From a virus (Duplodnaviria; Caudoviricetes), in IMG/VR virus record IMGVR_UViG_3300009678_000070, positions 1 through 51,104 of that record: 51,104 bases of DNA; one strand, 5' to 3'. A program made the translations under genes and the position numbers. A model generated the notes under the pieces. The model did not search any database. It had not been told where the DNA came from and saw nothing but the letters and a program-made list of their open reading frames with translations. Position 1 is the first letter of the stretch, and every line of letters starts with the position of its first letter. Shown one piece after another: positions 14,319 to 37,644 of the stretch.

Positions 14319-14353
14319 AAGGGCATACCGCTGCGATTGCAGCATTCACTTTG

Positions 14354-14378
14354 AACCGGCCTCAGTGCCGGTTTTTTT
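14354..14378 (+). terminator. intrinsic terminator-like hairpin before the tail tube gene
   Basis: aaccggc-ctcagt-gccggtt followed by a T run. Confidence 0.65.
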
Positions 14379-14390
14379 ATGGAGACTCAG

Positions 14391-14873: not shown

Positions 14874-14960
14874 CGGCGATACCACCAATCTATGGAGGCT
14901 GTCTGTGGGCGTACTCGCCGTCGATTCCCGGGCCTCCACCTTTAACGGCGAGGAAGTGCT

Positions 14961-15362
14961 ATGGATATTTCAGAACTGCAAGCAATGGGTGCGTTCGTTT
15001 CGAAGAAACCGGTCAAGCGAACCATCGAAGTCACGAAGCCTGTTCTCGTTCCGGCCGAGCAATGGCTCGATCCGAGCGAGCCAGAGTTCACTGGCGAAAC
15101 GGAAACCGTGGACATGGATGTCCATTTTCGTTTGCTGTCGTTTGCCGATCAACTCGCGGCATCGAAGGCCGATGATGGCGACCGGGAACTCGTCATGTTG
15201 CAGCGCATGATCGCAACGCCAGACGGTGCTCCGGTATTCGAATCGTTGGATCAGGTTCGCTCGCTGGACAACTGGCTGGTGCTTCCGCTCATGCAGGCGG
15301 CGGGCGAACTGTTGGGAAAAAACCAGAACTCGAAACCGGCGACGAGTTCTGGATCGAGTTAA
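14961..15362 (+). CDS. tail assembly chaperone (gpG-like)
   Basis: lies between tail tube and tape measure; slippery site near the 3' end. Confidence 0.8.
   Translation: MDISELQAMGAFVSKKPVKRTIEVTKPVLVPAEQWLDPSEPEFTGETETVDMDVHFRLLSFADQLAASKADDGDRELVMLQRMIATPDGAPVFESLDQVRSLDNWLVLPLMQAAGELLGKNQNSKPATSSGSS
15314..15323 (+). other. programmed -1 ribosomal frameshift site G GGA AAA AAC
   Basis: -1 frame reads KPELETGDEFWIELTLALGGRTPDEWQAAL and runs into ORF 15407-15646 without a stop. Confidence 0.85.
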
Positions 15363-15646
15363 CGCTGGCGCTCGGCGGGCGCACGCCTGACGAGTGGCAG
15401 GCGGCGTTGAGTGTCGAGTGGGTGAACAAGTTCATGCTGTATCGCGACAAGCATGGACCGTTCAACGCATCGTACCGAACTGAACTTGCAATCGCGCGCG
15501 CGGTGTCGCCGTTCTTTAAGAACGTCACCCCTCGCGACCTGCTACTGTGGCCGGTGATCGAGCCTGTCGAAGCCGATGTCAAGGACGTTTTCGCAATGAT
15601 TAAAAGTCTAGCAACCAAGCCGAAGAGCAAGGCCAATGGCAAGTAG
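15320..15646 (+). CDS. gpT-like frameshifted extension of the tail chaperone
   Basis: open -1 frame from the slippery site to 15646; EFWIEL..LGGRT..E..Y..KHGPFN pattern. Confidence 0.8.
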   Translation, partial: KPELETGDEFWIELTLALGGRTPDEWQAALSVEWVNKFMLYRDKHGPFNASYRTELAIARAVSPFFKNVTPRDLLLWPVIEPVEADVKDVFAMIKSLATKPKSKANGK

Positions 15647-20282: not shown

Positions 20283-22807
20283 CGTTCCTCGGCGCAGTAT
20301 TTTTTGGCACTGGCCTTGCGACCGCATCACTCGCGTATGTCGTCGCGGTCAATCTCGCACGCATTGCGATACTGTCTCTGATTTCCAAAGCACTGGCTCC
20401 GAAGATCGACCTGTCTCAAGCCGCCGCTGATAAGTTGCTGACCGTTCGCTCGTCGGTACAACCGCAAGCATTCGTGTACGGGCAGGACATGTTGAGCGGC
20501 CCGTTGCTGTTCGCGAATACAGGCGGTGAGGGAAACAATGATCTGCATAGGTTGGTGGCGCTTACCGGGCGCGAGATTGATTCGTTTGTCGCCTTTCGAA
20601 TTGACGATACAGACATAGTTATCGGAACGCATATTACTGGCGACTCCGGACTTGTTACCGGCGGCCCATTCGCAGACGTAGTAGAGATTGATACGCGCAG
20701 AGGTACGTCAACGCAGACCGCCATCGCTAACTTGCTCAGCGAATTTCCGGACAACTGGACGACCGACCACACGGGTCGAAGTTGGTCATTGTTCTATACC
20801 AAAATGTCATTGGTTGCGAATAACGAAGCGTTTGAAGGAGGCATCCCACAGAATCTTCGAGCACTCATTAAAGGGAGCAAGGTCTACGATCCGCGCGAAG
20901 CGCACGACATAGAAGATCACGAAACTTGGGAATGGACAGAGAACCCGGCGTTGTGTTTAGCAGATTTCATGCGATGGGGACGCATTGGTTACGGCGAGTC
21001 ACATGAGCGGATAGATTGGGATTTGGTCGCGGCGGCGGCCGACATATGTGACGAACTGGTTACTGTCCCGTCCGGTACGCAGAAACGGTACACCTGCAAC
21101 TTCACATTCTACGCCGATCAGAGTCGGGAAACTGTCAGAGAAATTCTGGAAACCGCGATGCTTGGTCGAATGGTTTTCTCGCAGGGCAAGTGGCGCATGT
21201 TCGCGGGTGCACCGATTGCTGCAACAGTGACACTCAGCGAAGCGAATCTTTCCGGCTCTTTACAGTTTCAAGCATCGACGCCTAGCGAGAATCGGTACAA
21301 CCGAATCAATGGCAAGTTCGTCGATCCGACTCGTAACTACACTGCGAACCCTTATCCTGAGCAGCGAGACAGTACATACGAGGACGCTGACAACGAGGTC
21401 AAGTATCAAACGTTCGATCAGAACGCCTGTAATAATTCCTACGAGGCACAGCGAAACGCAATCATTCGATTGCGTAAGTCACGGATGCAGCGGGTCGTAA
21501 ACTTTCAAGGCAACTGGTCGTGCTTTCGTGTTCAGCCCGGAACGACAGTGAACCTTGACTGCGAAGAACTTGGCTTGAGTGGAGAGAAGTATTTTGTAAC
21601 CGAGTGGACACTCGACAAGGAGGGCAAGGGCGTCAATCTTGTAATGGTGCAGGAAGACGATTCTGTTTGGGACGATCCCGAAGATTATGTGACGCGCACT
21701 TCAACCGGCGACTTGGTGTTCAACGATCAGGCAGCAGGTTTGACAAACGCCGAACTTCACAACGAGCGAATTAATGCGACATGCTATTCAGGCATCGTAG
21801 TAGGTGCCGATGGTCGCTTGTATTATTTGAATGCCGCTGGAGTGCCGACGCAGACCGGTGTGCCAGAGGGCGAGTGGCGCGGTTCTGAACTCGGCGACCG
21901 ATGGGTGCGATGCACTGTCAACTTCGGCACACTTGATGTCGGCACAGCCGATACTTGGCAATTCCTCGATGTGGACAGGGAGTTCAGTTGCAATCGTCCA
22001 ACAGCAGGCACCGATCTACTCAATATCACCATTGAAATTGCCGACGACGATGCAGGGACAAACATTATATCCAGCGCGACGTTTGATATTTCGGCCACAT
22101 ACATCACGCCACTCGCGTATGAGTTAGTAGAGGCAGGGAATTGGGCATCGAACTCCGGATCGTCGAGCGGCTCTGTGGCGCTTGACTTGCCGGCGCGCAC
22201 TGCCGGAAATCAGTTGATCGTGTACTACACCGGTCTTGCGCAAGATTTGTCAGCCCCTGCGGGCTGGACACAGTTTCACGACAACGCATTCCTTACCACT
22301 TCACACGCGAAATTATTTTCGCGCATAGCAACCAACGACTCTAATGATGATTTTACTCTGTCATGGTCAACAGGAAATCCGTGCGCCGCGCAGATGGCAT
22401 CGTTTACCGATCCTGCTTCAGTTACCAACCCTGTCGCGCAAAATGCTGGTGGCTCATTGCAGGAAGGTACTGTCGCATCGGCACCTTACTTCCCATATTT
22501 ACAATTTACCTCCGCAACAACTGGCTCATGGCTGTATCTATTAATTGCCGTGCGTTATCAAACAACTACCGGGACGGCGCCGGGCTGGACTCAAGTTACC
22601 GATGATGCTCAACTCGACGCCATTGGTAACTTGGCGTTTATGAATACAGTGACAACAAACAAAAGATCTTGGGCAGTCTATTGGGCGTGGAAATCTGTAC
22701 CAACGGGATCAGGACTAACGTTCACCGCAGGTGAACTCACATGCGACGGAACACATGCGATCAGTTCGCATATTAATTCTCAAATTCTTCGGCTGGTTGG
22801 AACATAG
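20267..22807 (+). CDS. tail tip / central fibre protein (gpJ-like) with C-terminal beta-rich domains
   Basis: FVYGQ, IKGSKVYDPR, WTENPALCLADF, AAADICDE, RYTCN, RYNRINGKFVDP. Confidence 0.88.
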   Translation: MGPALAFLGAVFFGTGLATASLAYVVAVNLARIAILSLISKALAPKIDLSQAAADKLLTVRSSVQPQAFVYGQDMLSGPLLFANTGGEGNNDLHRLVALTGREIDSFVAFRIDDTDIVIGTHITGDSGLVTGGPFADVVEIDTRRGTSTQTAIANLLSEFPDNWTTDHTGRSWSLFYTKMSLVANNEAFEGGIPQNLRALIKGSKVYDPREAHDIEDHETWEWTENPALCLADFMRWGRIGYGESHERIDWDLVAAAADICDELVTVPSGTQKRYTCNFTFYADQSRETVREILETAMLGRMVFSQGKWRMFAGAPIAATVTLSEANLSGSLQFQASTPSENRYNRINGKFVDPTRNYTANPYPEQRDSTYEDADNEVKYQTFDQNACNNSYEAQRNAIIRLRKSRMQRVVNFQGNWSCFRVQPGTTVNLDCEELGLSGEKYFVTEWTLDKEGKGVNLVMVQEDDSVWDDPEDYVTRTSTGDLVFNDQAAGLTNAELHNERINATCYSGIVVGADGRLYYLNAAGVPTQTGVPEGEWRGSELGDRWVRCTVNFGTLDVGTADTWQFLDVDREFSCNRPTAGTDLLNITIEIADDDAGTNIISSATFDISATYITPLAYELVEAGNWASNSGSSSGSVALDLPARTAGNQLIVYYTGLAQDLSAPAGWTQFHDNAFLTTSHAKLFSRIATNDSNDDFTLSWSTGNPCAAQMASFTDPASVTNPVAQNAGGSLQEGTVASAPYFPYLQFTSATTGSWLYLLIAVRYQTTTGTAPGWTQVTDDAQLDAIGNLAFMNTVTTNKRSWAVYWAWKSVPTGSGLTFTAGELTCDGTHAISSHINSQILRLVGT

Positions 22808-22825
22808 AGACTGCGATGTAATGAC

Positions 22826-23098
22826 ATGCACAGCGCTCCGATCCTCTGTCTGCTTATCATGGCGAATGCCGCGTGCTATGTCGTCGCGTGCGGGCACGAT
22901 CAGAAGTTCACTGTGGAATACTCGACTCGCGTGACGCCGCACCGCGATGCCGTCTGCGTGTACTACGGAATGCGTCTGACGCAGTTGTACGCGGACGAAG
23001 CGAACGCAGAAACCGAAGCCAAAAAAAAAGCGCTCCAAGCCGAGTCGTCGGCATTGGAGCGCTTATTCGAGCAACGTTGTATCAGTGATAAAAAATAA
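22826..23098 (+). CDS. hypothetical protein with hydrophobic N-terminus
   Basis: ORF following the tail tip gene; signal-like N-terminus, helical C-terminus. Confidence 0.55.
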   Translation: MHSAPILCLLIMANAACYVVACGHDQKFTVEYSTRVTPHRDAVCVYYGMRLTQLYADEANAETEAKKKALQAESSALERLFEQRCISDKK

Positions 23099-23201
23099 TT
23101 CTAAACAATAATATCAGCACACCCCACAGCATTACCGAAACCACTATGCTGAACAGGATGCCACGCATCGCGCGCAGGTCGTCCTTGTCACGCTGAATCA
23201 T
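23082..23201 (-). CDS. 39-aa single-TM protein (not in the ORF track)
   Basis: RBS caggag; MIQRDKDDLRAMRGILFSIVVSVMLWGVLILLFRIIFYH. Confidence 0.6.
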   Translation of the reverse strand: MIQRDKDDLRAMRGILFSIVVSVMLWGVLILLFRIIFYH

Positions 23202-23229
23202 TGCTGTCTCCTGTACTTCAATCGATCAC

Positions 23230-23895
23230 TTAGTCGCAAACATAGCGGTCGCCGCGATCCCGATAGCAACGAGGCGCGCTTGGTGATATTCCACCGCCAC
23301 CGCCACCGCCGTCTGAACCACCGCCACTCGTTCTGACTGTGCCGTCATTCTTGAGACAATCTTCGCCTGCCGTGTAGCCGTCGTCACCCGCACTGCTTGG
23401 AATTTTGAATGCAGTCGATTCCAATATCTTCTGATATTCGTAAGGTGCAGTGCTTGGCACGCCGCTTGGTGACACCGAGAACACGCGCCAGCCTTTGATG
23501 CTGGTACGCGTTTGCAATGACACGGCGACGCCTGACACGCTCAGCGTTCTGAATACGGTGATGATGGTTACGTTCTCGGTCTGACCCAAACCATTCTTGA
23601 CGCGAATGGTGAAACTGGATTCAGGTCCGAGTTTGTAACCGATAGATCCTATGCCGTATTCCTTGTCATACACTCCCGCTGCCGATCCGACCATGACATA
23701 GTTCCATGCCGCGTTCCCTACGTCACCGGGAAACTTGCTGATCTCGCGGCAGTTGCGACACGGAACCTGCGCAGTCAATCCATACTCGCTATAGTCGTCG
23801 GTCGGCTGCGTTCCCGTTGTGTCCATTGGGCACGCCGCATAAGCGAACGCAGGCACGAGTAGTGCAATCAGGACAACGATTCTCATGACTGCCAC
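23230..23895 (-). CDS. hypothetical secreted protein
   Basis: signal peptide MRIVVLIALLVPAFAYA; several Cys; Gly-rich linker near the C-terminus. Confidence 0.75.
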   Translation of the reverse strand: MAVMRIVVLIALLVPAFAYAACPMDTTGTQPTDDYSEYGLTAQVPCRNCREISKFPGDVGNAAWNYVMVGSAAGVYDKEYGIGSIGYKLGPESSFTIRVKNGLGQTENVTIITVFRTLSVSGVAVSLQTRTSIKGWRVFSVSPSGVPSTAPYEYQKILESTAFKIPSSAGDDGYTAGEDCLKNDGTVRTSGGGSDGGGGGGGISPSAPRCYRDRGDRYVCD

Positions 23896-24533
23896 CCTTC
23901 GCCAAGCAATGCTTGCCGCTCCCGTGTCAATCGATCAAAGCGCCTGTCTGCTCGCTGCTTGATCGGCGCAAGGTCTACGCCCTCTGCAAGCAACTCGTTG
24001 GCATAGCGTTGCACGCCGTCCGGCCAGTCAACGATCTTCGAAGTCGTCAGCGCGATCTCGTAGGCCGTTTCTGTGCTCTCAAGACTTTCGAGTTCCCCGC
24101 CCGTGCGCGCGCCCGCGCGGCTGTGCCTGTTGAACAGCCACTCGAACAATGGGTCCGGGCTGCCGCTCAACGCCACCGCGCGTTCGTAAAGCAACTCGGC
24201 AGCGTCGTCGTTGTCCGTGCGCCGTGCAAGAAGCACAGCGGCGTCCGGATCGCTGACCGACATAGCACGCAACTCGTCGTCTGAATAGACCGAGTACGCG
24301 TGGTCGCTTGCGGGTAATTGGAAGTCACTCACCGGCCTGCCTACAACCGGCAATTCGATGCTCGGCAGTTGTCGCTTGGTTTGACTGTCGGTTCTGAATC
24401 CCGCTTCGACAATCGCGTCCAGTTGCGACACCTGCTGCGCTTGCTCCCGATCAATCAAGCGGATGGTAACGAACACCATCAGCATGACTGCCACGAACGA
24501 GCCAGCCATCTTCAGTAACAACTTCCTGTCCAT
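23883..24533 (-). CDS. hypothetical membrane-anchored protein
   Basis: N-terminal TM helix; RBS actgaggag; helical body. Confidence 0.8.
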   Translation of the reverse strand: MDRKLLLKMAGSFVAVMLMVFVTIRLIDREQAQQVSQLDAIVEAGFRTDSQTKRQLPSIELPVVGRPVSDFQLPASDHAYSVYSDDELRAMSVSDPDAAVLLARRTDNDDAAELLYERAVALSGSPDPLFEWLFNRHSRAGARTGGELESLESTETAYEIALTTSKIVDWPDGVQRYANELLAEGVDLAPIKQRADRRFDRLTRERQALLGEGWQS

Positions 24534-24600
24534 TTCTTTTCTCCTCAGTATCGGTCAATGCTGACCACGATGCCCGCTCTCACCGGGCATCAGGGTTGCA

Positions 24601-24789
24601 CTAGTACAGTTCGTCCTCTGGCTCAATCGGTTCGTCGCATTCGTAGTCGCCGTCCGTCAATACTTCCGGGCGATACTTCGCCAACGTTGCCGTCTTGCAG
24701 TTCTCGCACACCCGCGCTAGCGCGATGCCTCGCGCATCATATTCCCACCACGAATTTTCATAGGTATGCGTGCAGGCTGCACCACTCAT
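24601..24789 (-). CDS. small hypothetical protein (CxxC)
   Basis: 62 aa, coupled to the upstream ORF. Confidence 0.7.
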   Translation of the reverse strand: MSGAACTHTYENSWWEYDARGIALARVCENCKTATLAKYRPEVLTDGDYECDEPIEPEDELY

Positions 24790-25130
24790 GATGCGTCTCC
24801 TTCAGTCTGCTCGCGTTCACGCGATACGATCAGGAACGCGTCCTTGATTGCGAGTAATGCTTCGCGCAGTTCCGCATTCTTTTCTCGTAAGCGTTCGTTC
24901 TTAATCCGCTCGTGTTCCAGTTGCAGTTGCACCGACTTGAGATCGGTGTCGAGTATTCGTCCGATCACGTCCGCGTCTGGATCGACAGCCGCATGATTGC
25001 CGTTCAGGTAGTTGCAACGACTCGCCGCGACCTCTCTGCTGTTGTGATCCGACTCCGCGTCCCAGTCGCCGTTTGGCTTGGTGTAGCCGACCGTCCACAC
25101 TCCCGGCTCGGTCTTGATATAAACGTACAT
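24786..25130 (-). CDS. hypothetical protein
   Basis: RBS actgagggag; WTVGY..NGDW..ESDH.S..A..R.NYLNG domain plus coiled coil. Confidence 0.8.
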   Translation of the reverse strand: MYVYIKTEPGVWTVGYTKPNGDWDAESDHNSREVAASRCNYLNGNHAAVDPDADVIGRILDTDLKSVQLQLEHERIKNERLREKNAELREALLAIKDAFLIVSREREQTEGDAS

Positions 25131-25202
25131 AGTTTTCTCCCTCAGTAAACGGCAGGAAAGTCCTACCAGTGAGCGCCCCGCAGGGCGCTCGTAGTTAGAA
25201 CC

Positions 25203-25370
25203 TCAATTCTCCTGTTGTTGTTTCTTCCTCGCGTACTTCGCTTTCTGTCGGCACGAGTTGCTGCAGTAGACCGCGCTCTTGACTGCCACGAATGATGTCT
25301 TGCACCACGCGCACTTGTGCCTGACGCGTCGGCGCATATCCGACAGGGCACCGCCCGGTGTGTCTTTCAT
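25203..25370 (-). CDS. small zinc-finger protein
   Basis: CAWCKTSF....AVYCSNSCRQKA. Confidence 0.7.
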   Translation of the reverse strand: MKDTPGGALSDMRRRVRHKCAWCKTSFVAVKSAVYCSNSCRQKAKYARKKQQQEN

Positions 25371-25462
25371 TTTCGCAGCCACCATTCAACAATCAAACCC
25401 ATCCAAACGAACGCTCCACACGCGAGCGCCGCCACCAGTAAAAATCCAAACAGATTGTCCAT
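25367..25462 (-). CDS. 31-aa membrane peptide
   Basis: RBS aggag; MDNLFGFLLVAALACGAFVWMGLIVEWWLRK; stop overlaps the next start. Confidence 0.6.
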   Translation of the reverse strand: MDNLFGFLLVAALACGAFVWMGLIVEWWLRK

Positions 25463-25472
25463 TCGTTTTCTC

Positions 25473-25796
25473 CTACTTCTTTTTCGCCGCCGCGACCTTC
25501 GCCGCCTTCTTTTGCAGCACATGCTTGCCATTGAAAATTCGGCCGACCGTTGCGTGCGATACACCGAACCGCTTTGCTACTTCGTCATGGGACAGACCTT
25601 CGTTGCGTACCGCCGCAATCTGCGAAAACAGCGAACGCGATATAATCACGCGAGCCTTGCGCTTGCCTCGTGACTGCTGCCCATTCGGCGTGGTCGTCAT
25701 GGTTACATTGGCTTGCATCTTTTCCCGCACGACGAACTCGTCGATCAGTGCGGCGTCCATGAGCGAATTAACTTCTATCGTAAGTGTTACTTTCAT
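25473..25796 (-). CDS. helix-turn-helix DNA-binding protein
   Basis: GLSHDEVAKRFGVSHATVGRIFNGK; start follows an array RBS. Confidence 0.8.
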   Translation of the reverse strand: MKVTLTIEVNSLMDAALIDEFVVREKMQANVTMTTTPNGQQSRGKRKARVIISRSLFSQIAAVRNEGLSHDEVAKRFGVSHATVGRIFNGKHVLQKKAAKVAAAKKK

Positions 25797-25858
25797 TTCT
25801 GAATCCTCAGTTGTGGTGAATATCAAAAGGCACACGCGCGCGCGTGTGCCTGAGTTAT

Positions 25859-26056
25859 TCACTGCTTGTGCCGTTTCTCGAACGACTGCATCCAATACAG
25901 AAGCACCTCGCGTGCTTGAGGCGATGTCAGTTTGAAGGCTCTGGTTAGGTACGGCGATGCACCGAACATATTGGTGATGCCTGATGCACGCAGTCCGTCC
26001 AGATAGGTCAGGTGCTTGTCGTCCACTATCGGTGGTCGGTCGCTTTGCTCAATCAT
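25859..26056 (-). CDS. small hypothetical protein
   Basis: YLDGLRASGITNMFGASPYL; flanked by array elements. Confidence 0.8.
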   Translation of the reverse strand: MIEQSDRPPIVDDKHLTYLDGLRASGITNMFGASPYLTRAFKLTSPQAREVLLYWMQSFEKRHKQ

Positions 26057-26120
26057 TGTCTTTTCCTCAGTTGGTGAATATCAAAAAGCGCACGCGAGCC
26101 GTGCGCTTGAGTTATTCACT

Positions 26121-26621
26121 TCAGGTCAGGCTGATCGGTCGCGGCGTGTGCTCGTCGCAGGTTTCGAACTGCACACCGACCGGGGCCGGTGCCTCAATGC
26201 CTGCGTGCCGACGCACAGCCTTTGCCAATTCTGATTGCGCTTTAATTACGCCACTTTGCGAACAACTGTTGCAGTTCCAATAGATACCACCTGCTGCAAC
26301 CAGTGCCTTGTGCTCGACCAGTTCGGCCTCGCACTTGTCGCACGGTCCATTGGATGGAACGCGCTCGCCTTCGGGTACGTCCTGCCAATCTCTGAAACGG
26401 CGATTTGCCTTTTCCAGTTCCTGTATGACGCGTCGCGTGCCTTCGCCGCGATTGGCATAGGCGTACTGCTTCGGATCGTAACTTCTACCCCAGTTGTCTA
26501 TCAGTTCGACGCGGCGCAAGTGGCCTATCGTGAGGTCGTTCGCATCGCCGCCGCAGCGCGGGCAGAACGTCAGGTGCGGGTCGAGACCGCGCTTTGGGTG
26601 TAATGGTATGTTTCCATTCAT
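26121..26621 (-). CDS. hypothetical Cys-rich (Zn-binding) protein
   Basis: three CxxC pairs; flanked by array elements. Confidence 0.8.
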   Translation of the reverse strand: MNGNIPLHPKRGLDPHLTFCPRCGGDANDLTIGHLRRVELIDNWGRSYDPKQYAYANRGEGTRRVIQELEKANRRFRDWQDVPEGERVPSNGPCDKCEAELVEHKALVAAGGIYWNCNSCSQSGVIKAQSELAKAVRRHAGIEAPAPVGVQFETCDEHTPRPISLT

Positions 26622-26692
26622 TGTCGTTTCCTCAGTTGATTGAACTAACGTGCCACCTCTTGCGAAGTGGCACGGTGGTTCACTTTGTTACA

Positions 26693-27793
26693 TCACGCTG
26701 CTTCTGCGATGCGTGTCCAGTCGGTCTTCGGCAACTCGATTATGTCGCCGCCGAGACGTTCCAGTTGGACTTGACGCTCGAAACTCACTTGCTCGTTCTG
26801 CGCGTAGTGAGTTATCGCCCACTGCATACCGAACTGTGACAAGTCGCCGCCTTGAATGAGCGACGCCAGAATGCCGTCCTGTTCAGTTGCCGTCAGGTTT
26901 GGCAGAGCCTTGATGGCGTCTGCCGGGCGTTCGATCTGTTTGCCTGTCATGGCTGCCTCGAACTCATCGACTGACGCGTTGAACCGTTCGAGCGACAGGC
27001 CAGCGGTCACGAGGTCCTGCACTTTCATCCAGAACGCCTTGTCATTTGCGATCTTGGTGGCGTCAGAGAACAGTTCCTGCACGCCGTCGCCTTCTGACAA
27101 CTTGCCGCCGACATGGTACTTGCGCATTGAACCGCTCGACCGTATTGCCATGTTCGAGCAACCCTTCTCCCAAGTGCCTGTCTCGACCGCAACCGAACCT
27201 TGACCCGTTTCGGAATTCGACAGGCAAGTGCCGGGCTTGAACAAGTGGATGAGATTGTGTCCGCCGTCGCCGAAGTACGCGCCTTTCACCTTCGACACCA
27301 TTCTCTCGATGCCCGGAATGACTGCTTTGATATACAGGCGGTTCTCGAGTATGTCGCAGTTCAGCACTTCTGCTTTCAGTTGTTGAAGTCGCGACAATGT
27401 GGCGTTGGCGAAGTCGTAGTTATCAAGTGGACGATAACCGTTCGACAGGTACGCTCTGACGTTATCAAACAGCACACGAACCATCCGCGTCGCAGGCTCG
27501 CGCTGGAACAACTGATTTATGTTCCATGCCAGCATGTCTGGGTGCGACTCTGCGAGCCGGTCAACGAACGTGGCCGGGATTGCGAGTTGCGTGCCCATCT
27601 GTCGAATGGCGTGCTGCTTGATCGGGAACCGTTCACTGCTGCCCGCTTTCAGTATGAGATTAGTCGGACTGCTGCTGTCGGGTTCAACGGTCAGGTGTCG
27701 AGTGTCGGCAACGAAGTCATACTTCGCGGCATTCTGTCGCGTGATTTCTTCCGCCAACTCGTTCAGCGTTAAGCCTTTTGTTTTCGTATTCAT
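26693..27793 (-). CDS. DUF932-like protein
   Basis: RAYLSNGYRPLDN, LSNSETGQGSV, CSNMAI, terminal LERLGG. Confidence 0.7.
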   Translation of the reverse strand: MNTKTKGLTLNELAEEITRQNAAKYDFVADTRHLTVEPDSSSPTNLILKAGSSERFPIKQHAIRQMGTQLAIPATFVDRLAESHPDMLAWNINQLFQREPATRMVRVLFDNVRAYLSNGYRPLDNYDFANATLSRLQQLKAEVLNCDILENRLYIKAVIPGIERMVSKVKGAYFGDGGHNLIHLFKPGTCLSNSETGQGSVAVETGTWEKGCSNMAIRSSGSMRKYHVGGKLSEGDGVQELFSDATKIANDKAFWMKVQDLVTAGLSLERFNASVDEFEAAMTGKQIERPADAIKALPNLTATEQDGILASLIQGGDLSQFGMQWAITHYAQNEQVSFERQVQLERLGGDIIELPKTDWTRIAEAA

Positions 27794-27859
27794 ATTCTTT
27801 CCTCAGTTTGTTTTGGCATGATTGCCAGAAGGCGCACTCATCGAATGCGCCTCAGTCAA

Positions 27860-28066
27860 TCACGAATGCTCGCACTTTTTATGCGAACTAAAACGCGCGA
27901 ACACTTTTACCTTGCCGCCGAATTGCGGCTTGTGAACATCGGCAAACTCTTGCGCCGCTGCGCGTGAGTTCCAAGTCCTTGCTTCCCAAAAATAGTCCTT
28001 GTCTTGAACAACGCTCCATTTATAACCGTTCCAGAACCGAACGATAAAATGCTGATTGGATTTCAT
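27860..28066 (-). CDS. small hypothetical protein
   Basis: start follows an array RBS. Confidence 0.75.
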   Translation of the reverse strand: MKSNQHFIVRFWNGYKWSVVQDKDYFWEARTWNSRAAAQEFADVHKPQFGGKVKVFARFSSHKKCEHS

Positions 28067-28123
28067 GTGGTGTCCTCAGTTGTGAATATCAAAAGGCGCG
28101 CTCATCGAACGCGCCTGAGTTAT

Positions 28124-28330
28124 TCACGAGTGGACGTAACCGTCTTTTTCAATGCCGAGCCACATGCCCTGCCATCGAACCATGACGCAGCCCGGTCCGG
28201 GTTGCACGGTGCGACGGAATCGCCGATACCCGCGCAGTGACAGGTCGATCCGATACACGCTGTCTGCTGTGCTGGTCGGACGTTCGTAGATTCGCTTTAG
28301 TGACACACGCTGTTCTCTGGTTAACCTCAT
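28124..28330 (-). CDS. small hypothetical protein
   Basis: array RBS; stop lies inside the next element; WQGMWLGIEKDGYVHS. Confidence 0.8.
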   Translation of the reverse strand: MRLTREQRVSLKRIYERPTSTADSVYRIDLSLRGYRRFRRTVQPGPGCVMVRWQGMWLGIEKDGYVHS

Positions 28331-28391
28331 TGTCGTTCCTCAGTTGGTGGTGAATATCAAAAGGCGCGCTCATCGAACGCGCCTGAGTTAT

Positions 28392-28613
28392 TCACTCTTG
28401 CAGTGCGCGAAAGGTGTCCGCGCTGCCTGCAAAGACTTGCCCCGGCCTCGCGTCGAGTTCGACCTTGACTCGATCATTCGGAGTCAATGACATGCCCACC
28501 ACTACGCCGTACCGCGCTCCACGCATCCACAGGTCTGTGCAAGGGTGCAATTCAACGCGGTCGCCGATCCCGTATCCGTTCCCATCAAAGCCATAGACCG
28601 TTTCGGTTTTCAT
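28392..28613 (-). CDS. small SH3/KOW-like hypothetical protein
   Basis: IGDRVELHP..WMRGARYGVV; array RBS; stop inside the next element. Confidence 0.75.
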   Translation of the reverse strand: MKTETVYGFDGNGYGIGDRVELHPCTDLWMRGARYGVVVGMSLTPNDRVKVELDARPGQVFAGSADTFRALQE

Positions 28614-28674
28614 TTTCGTTTCCTCAGTTGGTGAAACTAACAAGCCCGCTCTTGCGAACGGGCTTGGTGGTTTC

Positions 28675-29052
28675 TTACTCGCCGACTGCCGACTGGCGAG
28701 TCTTGCGTTTGTTGTGCTTTTCAACTTCTGCTGTCAGGTCGAAGTACGCCTGACCTTTCGCGGTGATGCTGGTAACGTAGACTTCCGCAGCCTCGCTGAC
28801 CTCGACACCTTGCGGGACGTACCAACTTATCTCATACGATGCGTCGCTTGGCGCTTCAACGCGGCAGCACCATATGTAAACGCCCGGCCCACCTTCCTTC
28901 TGCGCGCGCGCCACCATCGGCTTGAGACTCGAACGAAACGAACTTACCAGTCCGTCGAGCGCTTCCTTGCGGGTGTCCGCGGTCTTCCAGCCGAACACGG
29001 TGGCCGCATAGTAGTGATGGCCTTGCTCTTGCTTTGCTTTGCTTGTAGTCAT
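28675..29052 (-). CDS. hypothetical protein
   Basis: 125 aa between two array elements. Confidence 0.8.
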   Translation of the reverse strand: MTTSKAKQEQGHHYYAATVFGWKTADTRKEALDGLVSSFRSSLKPMVARAQKEGGPGVYIWCCRVEAPSDASYEISWYVPQGVEVSEAAEVYVTSITAKGQAYFDLTAEVEKHNKRKTRQSAVGE

Positions 29053-29116
29053 TTCTATTCCTCAGTTGTGGTTGGTGAATATCAAAAAGCGCACGGCTCG
29101 CGTGCGCTTGAGTTAT

Positions 29117-29332
29117 TCACTTGGTCGTTTCTATTGCCCACATCAAGCAATCGAATTGACCTTCGCTGTATCCGTCCTCGTCGTCCTCGTCCTGCTTGTC
29201 GCGTATGTCCCACAGATGATGCACCGTCTTGACGCTGCGCAGTTCTACGCGCTGACTATCGGTGAGTTCCATATCGGTGCAAAACATTTCCAAGTAGGCG
29301 TCGTTCGCAACGGACAGTTGGCGTTTGTTCAT
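29117..29332 (-). CDS. small acidic hypothetical protein
   Basis: DEDDEDG tract; array RBS; stop inside the next element. Confidence 0.75.
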   Translation of the reverse strand: MNKRQLSVANDAYLEMFCTDMELTDSQRVELRSVKTVHHLWDIRDKQDEDDEDGYSEGQFDCLMWAIETTK

Positions 29333-29392
29333 TGGTAGTTCCTCAGTTGGTGAATATCAGAAAGCCCGCTGTCGCCAACGGGCTTGAGTCAT

Positions 29393-29584
29393 TCACTCAG
29401 TAAACGCAACTTCGTAGCCGTGCGTTTCGTATCGTGTCACGCGCAAGTCGTAGCCTTCTTCGCTAGGAAATACTTTTCTGAATACCTCAAGTGCTGCCGA
29501 CGTTTTGATCAGGTTAGTCAGTGACCGTTCGTGCGTCGCGAAAAAGTGCTTGCCGTTTTTGCTAACATTTATTTCGTAGTACAT
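29393..29584 (-). CDS. small hypothetical protein
   Basis: YEINVSKNGKHFFAT..FPSEEGY; array RBS; stop inside the next element. Confidence 0.8.
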   Translation of the reverse strand: MYYEINVSKNGKHFFATHERSLTNLIKTSAALEVFRKVFPSEEGYDLRVTRYETHGYEVAFTE

Positions 29585-29649
29585 TGTCGTTCCTCAGTTG
29601 GTTTGCGTTGAACTAACAAGCCCGCGCATCGCACGGGCTTGGTGGTTCA

Positions 29650-29988
29650 TTAATCTTCGTCGCCGAAGTCTTCGGCGATTTCTTTGCACAGTTCGATCAG
29701 CGCGTCCTTCGCGCGCGTTTCTTCTGCATCAAGCATCAGTTCGTTGTCGAGCAGTTCGTCGTATTCTTCCTGACCATGATCGTAGTCTTCCAAAACTTCC
29801 TCGTACTCGGGCGTTCCTTCCTTGCCTTCGTCGCGCATCTTGTCGAGTTTGGCGCGCAGCATTGTCAGATCATCAAGCACTTCTTTCGCCTCGTCGCTGC
29901 GTGATCCTGCTCCGTCGCGCAATGCGTTTGCGCAGTCGCGCAGATCGGACAGCGTGTTTTGAAACCGGCAGTAACTCATGTTGCTCAT
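29650..29988 (-). CDS. acidic helical hypothetical protein
   Basis: MSNMSYCRFQNTLSDLRDC start; very D/E-rich. Confidence 0.8.
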   Translation of the reverse strand: MSNMSYCRFQNTLSDLRDCANALRDGAGSRSDEAKEVLDDLTMLRAKLDKMRDEGKEGTPEYEEVLEDYDHGQEEYDELLDNELMLDAEETRAKDALIELCKEIAEDFGDED

Positions 29989-30057
29989 TGGTCGTTCCTC
30001 AGTTGGTGAATATCAAAGGACGCGCTCAACGAGTGCGTCCGAGTTATTCACGCTTCG

Positions 30058-30273
30058 TTACTTGTTCCAGTACGACCGCGGCGCAGTCTTGGCGAATGCT
30101 ACGTCCCATTCGTCTGCCAACTTATTCATGCGCGCTGCCGCTTTTGGATTGACTTCCGCGAGATCTTCACACGCGTTCTCGAATGCTTCGATGCCCGGTC
30201 CGTCCACAACCACATCGTTGTCAGCAAACAGTTGTCGGATTTCAGAATTGATTGTTCCTAATGTGCGTTTCAT
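30058..30273 (-). CDS. small hypothetical protein
   Basis: between array elements. Confidence 0.75.
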   Translation of the reverse strand: MKRTLGTINSEIRQLFADNDVVVDGPGIEAFENACEDLAEVNPKAAARMNKLADEWDVAFAKTAPRSYWNK

Positions 30274-30336
30274 TTTCTAACCCTCAGTTGGTTTGCGTTG
30301 AACTAACAAGCCCGCGCATCGCACGGGCTTGGTGGT

Positions 30337-30444
30337 TCATTCACTCGCTGGCGTTTCGTGTTTGACATGCGCGAGAATTTGCGCGGCCAGTTGATCGTCG
30401 TGCCTCGCCAACAGCGCGAGTAGTTCCAGAAGTTCGTTGGTCAT
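30337..30444 (-). CDS. 35-aa peptide (not in the ORF track)
   Basis: MTNELLELLALLARHDDQLAAQILAHVKHETPASE; array RBS; stop inside the next element. Confidence 0.65.
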   Translation of the reverse strand: MTNELLELLALLARHDDQLAAQILAHVKHETPASE

Positions 30445-30515
30445 GGTCGTTCCTCAGTTGATGTGGGTTGAACTAACAAGCACTCGCTTGCGCGAATGCT
30501 TGGTGGTTCATTGTG

Positions 30516-30707
30516 TCAGTCCGTCATGTTGCAAGCGTCAAGAAAACGTTCGCGGTCGAAGGTCGGGTTGTCGCGTTTGCATATGCTCGCGAGTTCGCGC
30601 GCAATGGTGCGTCGTGTCGCGTTCGCTGCTTCGGCAGCCTTGCCGTAACCGGGCAGTTTGCAACCAGCGATAACGTTGGCGAGTTCAATGTAGTCTTTGC
30701 GTGACAT
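30516..30707 (-). CDS. small hypothetical protein
   Basis: MSRKDYIELA...DNPTFDRERFLDAC; array RBS. Confidence 0.8.
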   Translation of the reverse strand: MSRKDYIELANVIAGCKLPGYGKAAEAANATRRTIARELASICKRDNPTFDRERFLDACNMTD

Positions 30708-30787
30708 GTTTGTTTCCTCAGTTGATACAGTTCGGATTGAACTAACATGCCCGCTCGATTGAACGGACATGGTGGTTCAGTTTGCTG

Positions 30788-31015
30788 CTACCAAGTCGAC
30801 TCGCCTGCTTCGTGGTTGCGTACATGATCGATGCTGCCGTCTGAATCGACGACGATGTACCAATGCTCGCCCGCCTTGTTCGTATGCGCGTTCCATGCTT
30901 CGTCGTGATCGCTGCCCGTTTGCCAGTTGCTTGAAACGTCAAGCACCTTTTCGAGCATCATCATTGCTTGAACTTGTGCAGACGGTGCGGTGTCGATGTT
31001 GAATGCGTGTGCCAT
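30788..31015 (-). CDS. small hypothetical protein
   Basis: start follows an array RBS. Confidence 0.7.
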   Translation of the reverse strand: MAHAFNIDTAPSAQVQAMMMLEKVLDVSSNWQTGSDHDEAWNAHTNKAGEHWYIVVDSDGSIDHVRNHEAGESTW

Positions 31016-31085
31016 GTTTGTATCCTCAGTTGATTGGTGAAAATCAAAAAGCCCGCTCATCGAACGGGCTTGAGGCTTTCACTTT

Positions 31086-31319
31086 CTAGCGGTATGCGGT
31101 CGCTTTTGACGACCATGCTTCGTAGTTGTCCGAGTTGTATGCGAAGTTCGCGCGCAACTCGTCGTCGGTCATGTCAGGAAACCATCCCGAAGGAATGTAA
31201 TCCGCTGGGCCGTCGTAACCTTTCGCGGGCGTGATCGTCCACAACTTGATGTGCCGATCCCACCAGAGTTCGATTTTCGGAAACTCTTTCGCGATTTCTT
31301 TTGCTTCTTTGGTATTCAT
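31086..31319 (-). CDS. small hypothetical protein
   Basis: start follows an array RBS. Confidence 0.75.
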   Translation of the reverse strand: MNTKEAKEIAKEFPKIELWWDRHIKLWTITPAKGYDGPADYIPSGWFPDMTDDELRANFAYNSDNYEAWSSKATAYR

Positions 31320-31390
31320 TTTGTCGTTCCTCAGTTGGTGAATATCAGAGGGAGCATTCTTGCGAATGCTCCCGAGTTATTCACTTTTGT

Positions 31391-31615
31391 TCAGTAGTAA
31401 CTGCGCTCGGAAAGTGCTCGTGCTTTGTAACTGTACGATGTGAGGCCGTCGCGTTTTTGTGCTGCGGTGTGCAACTTGTTCGCGTATTGTTCGGCTTGCT
31501 CGTGCGTGCCGACCCATTGCTTGCCAGCCTCACGAAGCCATGCTTCGCGAGTGCCGGTGACGCCGCCCGATACGCGGCACCAAATTCCATGCGATACTTC
31601 GAATTGATTTTCCAT
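31391..31615 (-). CDS. small hypothetical protein
   Basis: WCRVSGGVTGTREAWL; array RBS. Confidence 0.75.
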   Translation of the reverse strand: MENQFEVSHGIWCRVSGGVTGTREAWLREAGKQWVGTHEQAEQYANKLHTAAQKRDGLTSYSYKARALSERSYY

Positions 31616-31694
31616 TTTGTGTTTCCTCAGTTGATGGTGAATGAAAATCAGCAAACGCATTGCCTAAGCAATGCGTTTGGAAAATCCACTCGGT

Positions 31695-31883
31695 TTAAAT
31701 CTGCCTGACGACCGTACCTGTTCTCTTACTGACGCGAAACTTCGCATACAGACACGCGCCTTTGAAAACGCAAACTTCGGTAAAGTTTTTCAAACTCCGC
31801 GTGATTAAAACTTCTGCGTCGTTTGGTGCATCGCAAAGAATCCGTAACAGATTTTTCTTTGCTTCGATTGCTACTGCGTTCAT
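31695..31883 (-). CDS. small basic hypothetical protein, first gene of the leftward array
   Basis: array RBS actgaggaacgacaATG. Confidence 0.75.
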   Translation of the reverse strand: MNAVAIEAKKNLLRILCDAPNDAEVLITRSLKNFTEVCVFKGACLYAKFRVSKRTGTVVRQI

Positions 31884-31979
31884 TGTCGTTCCTCAGTTTG
31901 AATTGCATGAGTGCCACTCGCGTCGTCGCGAACGGCTCATAATGAAATCCAAAACTGGTGAGCGGGTTTGAGAAAATGC

Positions 31980-32290
31980 TTGGGGTTAATTCCCCTCCCC
32001 GTTTCGGTTCTCGCGTCGGCTGGCGCCGACCGACCGACTAAACGGTTGCTACACGAACCTCTGAAACTTCGTGTAGCCCGACCCCACTATGCGGACCGGC
32101 GGACGATGGGACTTCCTGTTCGTCTCCCATCAGACGGACAACGTTGAAACCCCGGGTCGCCATGCGCGTGCGCGATTCGTTTCGGCTGAGGACCGTCGTC
32201 GTCGCGTGCGCATGGGTCGATGATGTACGCGTGCCGTGACTCACGTCGGGGCACTTCGTGCGTCGTTCATCGTTTGTGGGATACGTTGTC
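31980..32290 (-). ncRNA. candidate structured 5' leader with about six tandem hairpins
   Basis: inverted repeats near 31982-31995, 32015-32030, 32048-32077, 32105-32131, 32160-32215 and 32218-32272; no convincing CDS. Confidence 0.45.
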
Positions 32291-32298
32291 ACGTCGTC

Positions 32299-32327
32299 AT
32301 TATACGGCGCCGTCTCCGTGTCACCAA
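32299..32327 (-). promoter_or_regulatory. candidate sigma70 promoter for the leftward array
   Basis: - strand TTGGTG-N17-TATAAT. Confidence 0.55.
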
Positions 32328-32545
32328 AAGGTTTCATAGGCAACGAGTAATGTTTCACAGGCAACGAATTGTGGGCCGCGTCAACGTTGAGTCGTGCGAC
32401 GACATGTCATGGGGCGGGGCGCGAGGGATCGCGCGCCCTGCGCGATTCTGCGCGATTTGGGGGCATGGGGCGGGGCGTGCGTCGCGTCGTCGATTCGCGC
32501 TGGGGCGCGACACCTTGGCCGTGGCTGCGGTATAAATGGCCGGCC

Positions 32546-33577
32546 ATGCCAACGTCTCATCCGTCAGCAGCCGACCGGCCACGCCAGCCACTGGTCTTCG
32601 ACGCAGGCCAACAACTCAATGCGCCCGGTCGCTATGAGGATCGCTACGGTGGCTTCATGGGACTGTTTAAGTCCGTTGCCTATGCCTCACTGGACTTCGA
32701 TGTCACGGTGGAGAACGCACCGCCGACGTGGCGTCCACTGCTGCACGCGTTAGGCGCACAATTCTCTGGCGCGGCCACAATCGCGTTCCACGAAGATCGG
32801 GTGATCGCTGAAAGCGTGGCATCGTTCGTGGGCGCGCCCCTGCGCGCGCGCGACAGAACGGCGCTCGAGGCGTTTTGCGCGATGCGGCCTGAGACGGTCG
32901 ATGCGCTATGGAAGTGTGACTGTCAGTGGCGCGCACCGCGGACCGAGCGTGGCGTGTTCGCGACTTCGCTTCGTGACTTCTCGGTCACTTGCAACGGCTC
33001 GTTTTTCCGTGCCGAGATATTCGAGTACATGGATCAACTCAAGCACTATGTACCGCGCGCGCCGAACTTGGTGCTCGTGCCTTGCGCTGCCGACAAGCCT
33101 TATCCAAGTCCGTTGCACCAGATGGTCATAGATGCTCTGCCGGACGATTCGTGGGACATAATGAATGCAACTGGCGTACTCGGTCTCGTGCCGCGCGACC
33201 TGTGGGACTTCATGCCTCACTACGACAGCGGCATTCCGAATGAATGGCGACTGATGCATGTTGCCGCGTGGTATTTTCACAAGTGGCGAGCGCATTACAA
33301 ACGCATCGTCTGCCACACCGACTACTACAGCCTGTCGCTACTGCGCGCGTTTCAGTTGCTCGGATGGTCTGTCGGTACTCCGCCTGTGCCTGCGCAGCCG
33401 AGTATCCAATTCACTAGACCGATCAACTTTCACTACGACTACGAGGACCTCATGGGACGCACCGCGCTGGCGTGCCTGTCCGCCTCGCTGACTTCTGACT
33501 TCTCACATGTGGCCGGCTACCACGGCCTTACTGACCCGGTGTACTACTTTTTCAACGAACAACGGACACGACAATGA
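32546..33577 (+). CDS. ArcS/DUF5591-like protein (preQ0-tailoring candidate)
   Basis: VLVPCAADKPYPSPLH, LGLVPRDLW and MPHYDSGIP resemble the PCxxxKPY / GxVPxE / YD motifs of archaeosine synthase; stop overlaps queC; start uncertain (32546 or 32657). Confidence 0.65.
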   Translation: MPTSHPSAADRPRQPLVFDAGQQLNAPGRYEDRYGGFMGLFKSVAYASLDFDVTVENAPPTWRPLLHALGAQFSGAATIAFHEDRVIAESVASFVGAPLRARDRTALEAFCAMRPETVDALWKCDCQWRAPRTERGVFATSLRDFSVTCNGSFFRAEIFEYMDQLKHYVPRAPNLVLVPCAADKPYPSPLHQMVIDALPDDSWDIMNATGVLGLVPRDLWDFMPHYDSGIPNEWRLMHVAAWYFHKWRAHYKRIVCHTDYYSLSLLRAFQLLGWSVGTPPVPAQPSIQFTRPINFHYDYEDLMGRTALACLSASLTSDFSHVAGYHGLTDPVYYFFNEQRTRQ

Positions 33578-34341
33578 CAAACGCGATGGTTGTCCTCTCA
33601 GGAGGGCAGGACAGTGCAACCTGTTTGGCTTGTGCGCTGCACACCTACGACAATGTGCGGGCGGTCACGTTCGACTACGGCCAAAGGCATCGGATCGAGT
33701 TGGTTCAGGCGGTCGCAATCATCGAACGCGCAAGCCAGTTATCAGGTCGTCGTATACCACACGATCTGGTGAAGGTGCCTGATGTTCTGATCGGCACGAG
33801 TCCGTTGACAAACAGGGAGCAAGTGGTCGAACTGTACGAATCGGCAGACACACTTCCGGGCGGTCTGGAAAAAACGTTTGTCCCCGGTCGCAATATTCTG
33901 TTCCTAGCCATCGCGGCCAGCCGAGGGTACGTTCACTTCGACGGAGACCCGTTCTTGTTAGTGACCGGCGTTAGTCAAGAGGACTTCGGCGGCTACCCGG
34001 ACTGCCGCTCTACATTCATGGAAGCGATGCAGACCTCTCTCAATCGCGGTCTATATCTAGACGATTCTCTACAGAATGTTGTAATCGAAACGCCGCTCAT
34101 CTACTTGAGCAAGGCGGACACGGTGCGACTTGCGCGCGATACCGAATTCGGAATGGAACTCGTCGGTCTGTCGCACACTTGCTACAACGGGTTGCGCGGT
34201 ACGGTCCATGACGACGGATCTGTAACGGTTGGTTGCGGTCACTGCCACGCTTGTCTGTTGCGATCACGCGGGTTCGCTGATGCTGGGATCGAAGATCCTG
34301 CCAAGTCCTTGCTTGCAACAGACCTACTGCAGGCAGGTTAG
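33574..34341 (+). CDS. queC: 7-cyano-7-deazaguanine (preQ0) synthase
   Basis: VVLSGGQDSATCL, FDYGQRH, TFVPGRN, GYPDCR, HTCY, CGHCHAC. Confidence 0.96.
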   Translation: MTNAMVVLSGGQDSATCLACALHTYDNVRAVTFDYGQRHRIELVQAVAIIERASQLSGRRIPHDLVKVPDVLIGTSPLTNREQVVELYESADTLPGGLEKTFVPGRNILFLAIAASRGYVHFDGDPFLLVTGVSQEDFGGYPDCRSTFMEAMQTSLNRGLYLDDSLQNVVIETPLIYLSKADTVRLARDTEFGMELVGLSHTCYNGLRGTVHDDGSVTVGCGHCHACLLRSRGFADAGIEDPAKSLLATDLLQAG

Positions 34342-36788: not shown

Positions 36789-37644
36789 TTAACCACTCCA
36801 CTGAGGCTGCAACATTTTTCTCGAATCGACGCTCGCCTTTGTTGCGCGGCACTTCCCACAGTTCTAGGTAATGTTTGTCAGGGCCGCAGAACGTGGCAGC
36901 CTGTTTGACGAACTCGGTGCCGGTTGTGTCTGTGGCGTCGCACCACGCGGCATATCGTCGCGCTCCTTCGATGATCGTTTGCCAATCCTCACCGCCTTTC
37001 AGTCGCGTGTTACAGGCGCGCAGTGCTCGATTCCATGATTGTCCGCCTGCACGCTTCGGGTAGACTCGCTTCAGTTCTTCGAAGTCGAAAGTGGGCTGTT
37101 TTTTTTGTGAGCGTCGCGTCGCTTTCTTTTTGGCGACGCGATGTACTAATGATTCACTACGTGTCGATAGTTTTCCGTGTGAAGGACTTTCCGATACCAC
37201 GTTTTTTGCGTCTCGGTCTGCGTCTCCATCTGCCGCGCAAGCGGTCTTATCTGTATCTAAGGCCGTTACCTCGCCGTTACTGAAACGTTTCCTCGCCGTT
37301 TCAGGATTGTTAGGTATTGTTTTGTTTGGTCTTTTCTTTTGCCGTTCGCGATACTTGCGCACCCGTGCCGTGCTGTTGGCAGAAACAGGCTGTCGCTTCT
37401 CCCAGTTGACTATTTCGTCGTTCGCGTCCATGAATCCTTTACGTCGAAATACTTCCAGCGTTGTTTCAAGTTCCTCGCTTGAAATGCGCATGGCACAAGC
37501 GAGTTCGTCGTGGCTTAGATTTATTTCCTCAGAGCATTTGAGGCAGAACATCATGACGAGTCGGCGCTGCAATGTTTCGTCCATGCTTTGCACTTTCGGG
37601 TCTTTCGCAAATTCCGCATACATGCGGAACCACGGTAGGCTCAT
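36775..37644 (-). CDS. phage replication initiation protein
   Basis: PWFRMYAEFAKDPKVQ N-terminus, NWEKRQ..STARVRKYRERQK, FEELKRVYPKRAG, VKQAATFCGP. Confidence 0.85.
   Translation of the reverse strand: MSLPWFRMYAEFAKDPKVQSMDETLQRRLVMMFCLKCSEEINLSHDELACAMRISSEELETTLEVFRRKGFMDANDEIVNWEKRQPVSANSTARVRKYRERQKKRPNKTIPNNPETARKRFSNGEVTALDTDKTACAADGDADRDAKNVVSESPSHGKLSTRSESLVHRVAKKKATRRSQKKQPTFDFEELKRVYPKRAGGQSWNRALRACNTRLKGGEDWQTIIEGARRYAAWCDATDTTGTEFVKQAATFCGPDKHYLELWEVPRNKGERRFEKNVAASVEWLNETA

Follow-up and report, generated by a model that had tools for sequence, protein, structure and literature searches.

A dense array of RNase III-like hairpins between the small genes of a siphophage operon

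The virus record IMGVR_UViG_3300009678_000070 (Duplodnaviria; Caudoviricetes), whose full 51,104 bases are our window, carries on its minus strand a leftward operon of small genes, most of which are preceded by a long hairpin and a short leader. We call each hairpin with its leader a joint. The record is rated 72% complete. A PHROGs search of the window identified head genes of the HK97 type and siphovirus tail genes, as well as Exo VIII and a Bet/RecT-like protein. Profile searches (PF00589 and PF07508) found no integrase or serine recombinase in this 72%-complete contig, and a domain search found no RNase III domain encoded by it. There was no PHROGs match to a single-subunit RNA polymerase in the window (a profile search with PF00940 matched no control either, so it is uninformative). 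The best matches of the terminase among cultured phages (54-59% identity) infect Stenotrophomonas and rhizobia, so we guess that the host is a proteobacterium. With blastn against cultured phages we found a 68-base coding match and nothing else; near-identical DNA is present in freshwater and in other sediment runs. Almost all of the small genes in the leftward run lack a family assignment in PHROGs or Pfam. The 366-amino-acid DUF932-like gene (26693-27793, minus strand) belongs to phrog_1362 and served as our anchor for finding relatives; DUF932 is found in some of its homologues, and the protein itself has no Pfam match at E 0.01.

A candidate sigma70-type promoter, recognized by eye, lies at 32327-32299 on the minus strand (TTGGTG, 17 bases, TATAAT), with a predicted start near 32292. 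Its -10 element is perfect, and our promoter scan did not list it because the -35 element matches at just 3 of 6 positions. At the other end, a long stem followed by U9 (23064-23021, minus strand) is a strong candidate for an intrinsic terminator that closes the operon. The predicted transcript between them would be about 9.3 kb, which agrees with the single transcript of about 9 kb proposed in the initial annotation of this sequence. Within 22500-33000 there are two promoter-like sites (5.3 expected), and none of the joints contains a sigma70 consensus.

Before the first joint, the transcript would have a structured non-coding leader (31958-32292, minus strand). The fold of 31880-32295, a stretch that includes the first joint, has a z score of -4.6, and none of 100 shuffles was as stable. 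A lambda-type boxA (GCTCTT) was looked for there and is absent. These roughly 330 bases, inside which one RNA contig (31998-32272) falls, might serve in antitermination or give rise to a small RNA. Two 16-base direct repeats with one mismatch and a period of 21 bases (32331-32367, minus strand) lie immediately upstream of the -35 element of the candidate promoter and are possible regulator sites.

The initial annotation reported about 20 joints in this operon, and we found 20, all on the minus strand and far more than in shuffled sequences. The window has 20 copies of AACTGAGG, always on the minus strand (0.9 expected by chance; at most 4 in 100 shuffles), and 18 of them are within 25805-31898. 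Two further joints (25140 and 24543) use TACTGAGG instead. The shorter motif ACTGAGG has 21 copies in 24500-32000; one of them (27856) is inside another hairpin and the other 20 are the joints. Each of the first 18 genes of the operon (31883 to 25796) has a joint before it, and about four later genes, mostly overlapping, have none. At all 15 joints that we measured, the stop codon of the upstream gene ends 7-19 bases 5' of the upper stem. This stem has 10-11 base pairs and is followed by a leader of 24-36 bases with a Shine-Dalgarno site, whose GAGG ends 7-9 bases 5' of the AUG in 16 of 16 copies; the lower stem stops a few bases 5' of that site.

Sixteen of the joints share one register and fall into two classes, as the initial annotation had it: 10 are of type 1 and 6 are of type 2. 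These 16 regular copies occupy 5,570 bases (2.9 per kb). In type 1, the lower stem is GUGAAUA/UAUUCAC, with a 4x5 internal loop (variants in 3 of the 10 copies). On the minus strand, the type 1 joints are at 31329-31385 (predicted nick after 31347), where the structure that the initial annotation drew for 31329-31384 proved correct; 31024-31083 (after 31046), with a U5 run; 29997-30052 (after 30015), which has the only A·C mismatch; 29341-29397 (after 29359), with a GCGA loop; 29060-29121 (after 29084); 28338-28396 (after 28359) and 28074-28128 (after 28091), which are identical to each other over 46 bases; 27801-27864 (after 27827), a divergent copy that precedes the DUF932-like gene; 26065-26120 (after 26083); and 25805-25863 (after 25825), which precedes a helix-turn-helix gene (25473-25796). 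In type 2, the lower stem is UGAAC/GUUCA, with a 3x3 internal loop. Those joints, also on the minus strand, are at 30716-30782 (predicted nick after 30744); 30452-30513 (after 30475), before an open reading frame of 35 amino acids (30337-30444); 30282-30342 (after 30305) and 29592-29652 (after 29615), which are identical to each other over 60 bases; 28622-28677 (after 28639); and 26630-26685 (after 26647).

The four looser joints are on the minus strand as well. The joint at 31891-31957 has an irregular long stem and AACUGAGG and precedes the gene at 31695-31883. The joint at 31625-31690 resembles type 1, with an upper stem of 12 base pairs, and a covariance model that we built from the 16 regular copies alone (model R1) matches it at 31641-31690 (E 0.029). 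The joints at 25140-25213 and 24543-24603 have two-tier hairpins with UACUGAGG, and model R1 does not match either of them.

The upper stems differ in sequence between copies and stay paired, which bears out what the initial annotation had said of them. Across the 16 copies, 98.1% of the 160 cells are paired, and 9 of the 10 pairs show two-sided changes; none of 500 shuffles scored as high, and slid registers were 25-63% paired. Perfect hairpins of at least 9 base pairs in 24400-32000 number 18 on the sense strand and 8 on the antisense strand, with a mean of 1.4 and a maximum of 4 in 30 shuffles. That annotation also argued from the mismatches that selection acts on the RNA. The upper stems do contain 12 G·U pairs and a single A·C pair, in the copy at 29997 that had been named as the exception, but 10 of the 12 wobbles occupy one stem position (the U·G of the distal box, described below) and therefore do not count as 12 separate signs. 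All 12 are U·G with U on the 5' arm. Loops of the GNRA type, which had been described as the rule, are found in 5 of the 16 copies, and GAU, with 6 of 16, is more frequent than any other loop.

To compare the joints with the RNase III sites of phage T7, we used GenBank record V01146, which carries no labels for these sites, and read the hairpins at the presumed positions. The R1.1 geometry that the initial annotation gave is present there. We ran model R1 on both strands of T7 with filters off and E values up to 1, and there were exactly four matches (E 7e-7 to 0.002): 1429-1477, 5849-5896, 854-899, and 36818-36865. We take these to be R0.5, R1.1, R0.3, and R18.5, respectively. The covariance-model search that had been suggested as a check, as run on T7, thus returned RNase III-site positions only. 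The nicks given by our register (890, 1468, 5887, 6448, 13892, and 36856) equal the presumed ones; this agreement is a consistency check only, because the presumed positions served to find the sites.

Of 28 flanking bases, 16-25 are the same in type 1 copies as in T7 R0.3 (25 for the joints at 29060 and 26065), as compared to 19 of 28 for R1.1. When type 1 and R0.3 are placed in one register, both leaders start with GAUAUUCAC (in most type 1 copies). By these shared bases, the closest T7 relative of type 1 is R0.3 and not R1.1. So the likeness to R1.1 on which the initial annotation relied holds for the geometry, but the best match, leader included, is R0.3. The literature names R0.3 as an RNase III site (PMC3276506) and R0.5 and R1.1 as T7 early sites (PMC3643576); R1.1 lies between T7 genes 1 and 1.1 and has a 4x5 loop with one primary cut (PMC6121014). 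Like the T7 signals, the joints have a two-tier intercistronic hairpin, an upper stem of about 11 base pairs, and a short leader to the Shine-Dalgarno site. Type 1 also shares, with variants in 3 copies, the 4x5 loop topped by C·U, an asymmetric loop of a kind that limits cutting to one strand; part of the copies share the CAAG/CUU proximal box and the U·G of the distal box. Unlike in T7, 18 genes in a row each have a joint before them, and the phage is a siphophage of the HK97 type; the joints include a second class, whose loop is 3x3 and whose proximal box has C-G at position 4; the stems are richer in GC; and the U runs are longer. In T7, about 7,000 bases contain five signals (PMC3867540), so its sites are few by comparison, as the initial annotation had stated, and the density here is about four times that of T7.

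The conserved pairs can also be compared with the determinants known for E. coli RNase III. Its minimal substrate has an 11-base-pair helix, close to the 10-11 pairs of the upper stems, with a proximal box of G-C, A-U or U-A, A-U, and A-U or U-A (positions pb1 to pb4) and a distal box of U-A and U·G (PMC1540722). The U·G must have its U on the 5' arm, and R1.1 has U·C at pb4 (PMC1540722, whose base numbering fits the R1.1 sequence in the register that we used). Among the 16 copies, pb1 is G-C in 15, pb3 is A-U in 13, and the middle-box C-G is kept in 14. At pb4, 9 of the 10 type 1 copies have C·U, as R1.1 does. In the distal box, U·G is present in 10 of 16 copies (7 of the 12 distinct stems), U-A in 10, and both in 8; T7 R0.3, R0.5, and R18.5 likewise depart from the U·G/U-A pattern. 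The type 2 joint at 28622 has a cap like that of R1.1 (GCAA loop and U·G/U-A distal box). The wobbles that the initial annotation had noticed are explained by this box, because 10 of the 12 occupy its U·G position, a pair preferred there by E. coli RNase III. Both the T7 matches and the conserved pairs agree with its view that the joints resemble RNase III sites.

We propose that the joints work like the RNase III signals of T7 and that host RNase III probably cuts the predicted 9.3-kb transcript into mostly single-gene mRNAs. From the sequence comparisons, we put the probability of this at roughly 0.7. By register with T7, each regular joint would receive a single nick, in the 3' strand of its internal loop. 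The mRNA upstream of the nick would then end in the upper stem, which would shield its 3' end from exonucleases. The mRNA downstream would open with a short leader of uniform kind, which starts with GAUAUUCAC in most type 1 copies, as that of T7 gene 0.3 does in this register. Differences in the proximal box and in the U run might grade cutting and read-through joint by joint. The cutting enzyme would be the host's, as the contig has no RNase III domain of its own.

Several observations weigh against this proposal. At pb2, 6 of the 10 type 1 copies have G-C, which blocks or strongly reduces binding in the minimal substrate (PMC1540722); all six T7 sites of firm register keep A-U there, and none has G-C. 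In type 2, pb4 is C-G in every one of the six copies, a pair that makes cleavage 7-fold weaker while binding is undiminished (PMC1540722). A fully permissive proximal box is found in just 4 of the 16 copies, all of type 1, and every rule is followed in two (31024 and 29341). Type 2 shares only 7-14 of 28 bases with the T7 sites, and model R1 has no match at T7 R1, R1.3, or R4.7. The element is also absent, at E 0.01 with model R1, from 80 other records that contain a DUF932-like gene. The copies are of common ancestry, with 12 distinct upper stems among 16 copies and two identical pairs, so the counts of joints overstate their independence. Finally, 10 of the 16 copies score as terminators, as discussed below. 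The box rules describe a minimal substrate of the E. coli enzyme; the enzyme of this phage's host may follow other rules. Full-length substrates and the enzymes of other hosts may be more tolerant. In E. coli, a single cut is seen in 63% of targets and the preferences in vivo are partly different (PMC6212723).

The joints might instead be mainly weak intrinsic terminators or attenuators that produce a falling gradient of expression, possibly overcome by an antiterminator or by a ribosome that halts at the stop codon next to the stem. With a terminator discriminant (scores above zero are terminator-like), the 10 positive copies score as high as 25.6, none of 6 T7 RNase III sites is positive, and T7 TE and Tphi score 7.5 and 22.3. 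Terminator-like sites number 26 (14.5 expected), with 8 joints among them, so partial termination at joints is possible. The stop codons abut the stems, and the 3' strand of the type 1 loop has U where T7 has A. However, the other 6 copies score negative, and the U runs in the joints are 1-5 long and interrupted, as compared to U9 at the end of the operon. Nor does termination need a conserved lower stem, a conserved loop, or a fixed U·G, and the scan points to no promoters within the array from which transcription could restart (the region has fewer promoter-like sites than expected). The initial annotation had itself raised terminators as its alternative; the positive scores keep a part of it, in that a minor terminating role alongside cleavage is possible, but as the main function we consider it unlikely. 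It is a little less likely again that the hairpins are bound by RNase III or another protein and mostly left uncut, or that they are uncut stabilisers or ribosome standby elements. Twelve of the 16 copies have a proximal-box pair that lowers binding or catalysis by E. coli RNase III (PMC1540722), and the lower stem ends just 5' of the Shine-Dalgarno site. But type 1 is nearly identical to T7 R0.3 across the nick and the leader, the proximal box is fully permissive in four copies, and the hammerheads that occupy analogous positions in other phages (see below) do cut.

Could the repeats act mainly as DNA, as recombination joints for gene cassettes, whether attC-like or by the kind of exchange suggested for the promoter early stem-loops (PeSLs) of T4-type phages? 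Each joint goes with a single gene, two pairs of joints have identical stretches of 46 and 60 bases, Exo VIII and a Bet/RecT-like protein are among the phage's products, and one contig of depth 2.4 links 28349 back to 28082 over the 46-base repeat. That lone link is expected of a 31-mer assembly graph at a 46-base repeat, so the contig may be an assembly loop or artefact. Also, the 12 G·U pairs against one A·C and the 18 long hairpins against 8 favor the sense RNA, the contig (72% complete) has no tyrosine or serine recombinase, and six other sediment DNA runs that match the window at 99% or more, at low depth, have no listed differences and show no loss or swap of cassettes. The lower stem of type 1 lacks the AAC/GTT pair of attC. 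We consider recombination very unlikely as the main function, and exchange as a by-product plausible. The least probable of these explanations, and one that we would be quite surprised to see confirmed, is that the elements are per-gene promoters, as the PeSLs are, or an undescribed self-cleaving ribozyme. Cultured phages that share single genes of the array do have promoter-like spacers (Milchi and Troll) or ribozymes (CRP-3 and Troll) at these places. The copies have no sigma70 consensus and no Rfam ribozyme match, though, and they form a plain stem-loop rather than a multi-helix core; their likeness to T7 points to a protein enzyme. No Rfam family matched at the joints. (There was one marginal tRNA match at 43434, and we treated 7 sub-threshold matches, 4 of them to attenuator leaders, as chance.)

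We also looked for signs of processing in environmental RNA. One metatranscriptome yielded two RNA contigs (28130-28336 and 31998-32272), neither of which crosses a predicted nick. They are no evidence for cutting, because chance gives this result with probabilities of 0.45-0.62 and 0.28-0.50, and there may be DNA in the library.

The array itself was not found in other genomes by pattern scans of viral contigs, metagenome contigs, and GTDB: among the matches listed, the only record with it is 100% identical to the window. Five stretches from these scans (one from a metagenome contig and four from GTDB) were rejected; three of the five were folded, and the hairpin was absent. The hairpin matches outside the window, among those listed, are single sites (L045, L064, and L059). 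The site in L059 is directly 5' of a gene for a T7-type RNA polymerase, and L045 and L064 look T7-like from their hairpins. Model R1 had no match at E 1 in six regions of cultured phages and two weak matches (E 0.13 and 0.39) in 71 further loci. A generic detector of two-tier hairpins gave up to 7 matches per relative, which we did not count because they are mostly inside coding sequences.

Other phages with a DUF932-like gene have other kinds of joints. Of 81 loci with this gene (the window's own included), 9 have clusters of at least 3 related hairpin leaders. In L199 (IMGVR_UViG_3300011414_000002, 3246-7993; 13347-18094 under handle G002), a run of small genes contains eight type II hammerheads, 7 of them above the Rfam cut-off, and the last one ends 14 bases 5' of the start of the DUF932-like gene. 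By tblastx, this is the only gene that L199 and the window clearly share. Hammerhead II matches occur in 7 of the 80 other records with DUF932-like genes (5 above the cut-off), as compared to 0 of 14 control genomes. Besides L199, these are L211 (3850-4834 under handle G061), L157, L158, L192, L193, and L217, with one to three matches each. A different two-tier hairpin with conserved flanks 5' of the Shine-Dalgarno site has seven copies in L154 (IMGVR_UViG_3300043707_000134, 240-3770); it has no Rfam match, and a pattern scan found no other array of it. L154 also has a non-coding stretch with many short imperfect repeats (5640-6340).

We checked six cultured phages that share a single small gene with the array, and examined the spacers of Troll, CRP-3, and Milchi by eye. 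Bacillus phage Troll (L247) has repeated promoter-like spacers and a pistol ribozyme (7116-7183). Roseobacter phage CRP-3 (L245) has a type II hammerhead (2273-2344) and a hammerhead-like spacer below the cut-off (2918-3006). Pseudomonas phage Milchi (L243, PQ464597.1, 157495-169674) has, in the gaps between small genes, about 10 repeats of a hairpin spacer that carries promoter-like hexamers; by eye these look PeSL-like.

Hammerheads in clusters, active ones, have been described between the genes of phages and prophages (PMC3088659). Like them (PMC3088659; RF02276), the joints here would be repeated RNA elements that cut a polycistronic message just 5' of the ribosome-binding sites; unlike them, the joints have no catalytic core and would need a host protein. 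The joints also resemble the T4-type PeSLs, which are repeated stem-loops between small variable genes and possible points of recombination, but a PeSL carries an early promoter (PMC4122927), whereas the joints lack a sigma70 consensus and have a lower stem and loop of the RNase III type. Another comparison is with phages outside the T7 group that use the same logic. In Bacillus phages SP82 and SPO1, host RNase III cuts early mRNA between small genes, although with another enzyme specificity, another hairpin shape, fewer sites, and several promoters.

Elsewhere in the window, genes of the queuosine/7-deazaguanine pathway are at 858-3389 and 32369-34341 (tRNA-ribosyltransferase-like, GTP cyclohydrolase, QueD, QueE, QueC, and DUF5591), which suggests that the phage DNA is modified. 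The final two genes of the operon (23230-24533, minus strand) encode proteins of 216 and 221 amino acids with hydrophobic N-terminal stretches and no family match, and these are possibly envelope proteins. At 43379-43440 (minus strand), a bidirectional terminator-like hairpin is followed by AACTGAGG; the marginal tRNA-like match to Rfam (43434-43501, plus strand) adjoins it.

The signal and its logic are already known from T7; what is new is the dense variant, the likeness at the level of R0.3, and the second class. In the literature that we searched, where older and subscription papers are thinly represented, we found no dense array of RNase III sites outside T7-like phages. Why early phage messages are cut into single-gene pieces is still unsettled, and a 2019 review describes the purpose of clustered phage ribozymes as undefined (PMC6765202). 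We tentatively suggest, as a doubtful extension drawn from the sequences, that the joints make up an RNase III code with two classes. In it, type 1 (C·U at pb4, 4x5 loop) would be nicked once at a rate set by pb2, and type 2 (A-U at pb2, C-G at pb4, 3x3 loop) would be bound but cut slowly, holding the enzyme; the early transcript would then both set the amounts of the small proteins and soak up host RNase III, and small-gene operons of this kind could be punctuated interchangeably by RNase III hairpins, by hammerheads, or by promoters for each gene.

In this operon, one signal is available in 16 natural variants within a single context, which differ at the positions used for RNase III binding and catalysis, and the nick is predicted to a single base at each regular joint, so the proposal is cheap to test. 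The copies may also be usable as insulator parts, as T7 R0.5 and R1.1 are (PMC3643576). If our proposal is correct, then a signal with R0.3-level likeness extends to an unrelated siphophage. What precedes the DUF932-like gene is an RNase III-type hairpin in this phage and a hammerhead in L199. By analogy, this supports the view that small-gene operons of phages provide every gene with a 5' end of its own, through devices that vary; in this operon the device would be the predicted cleavage by host RNase III.

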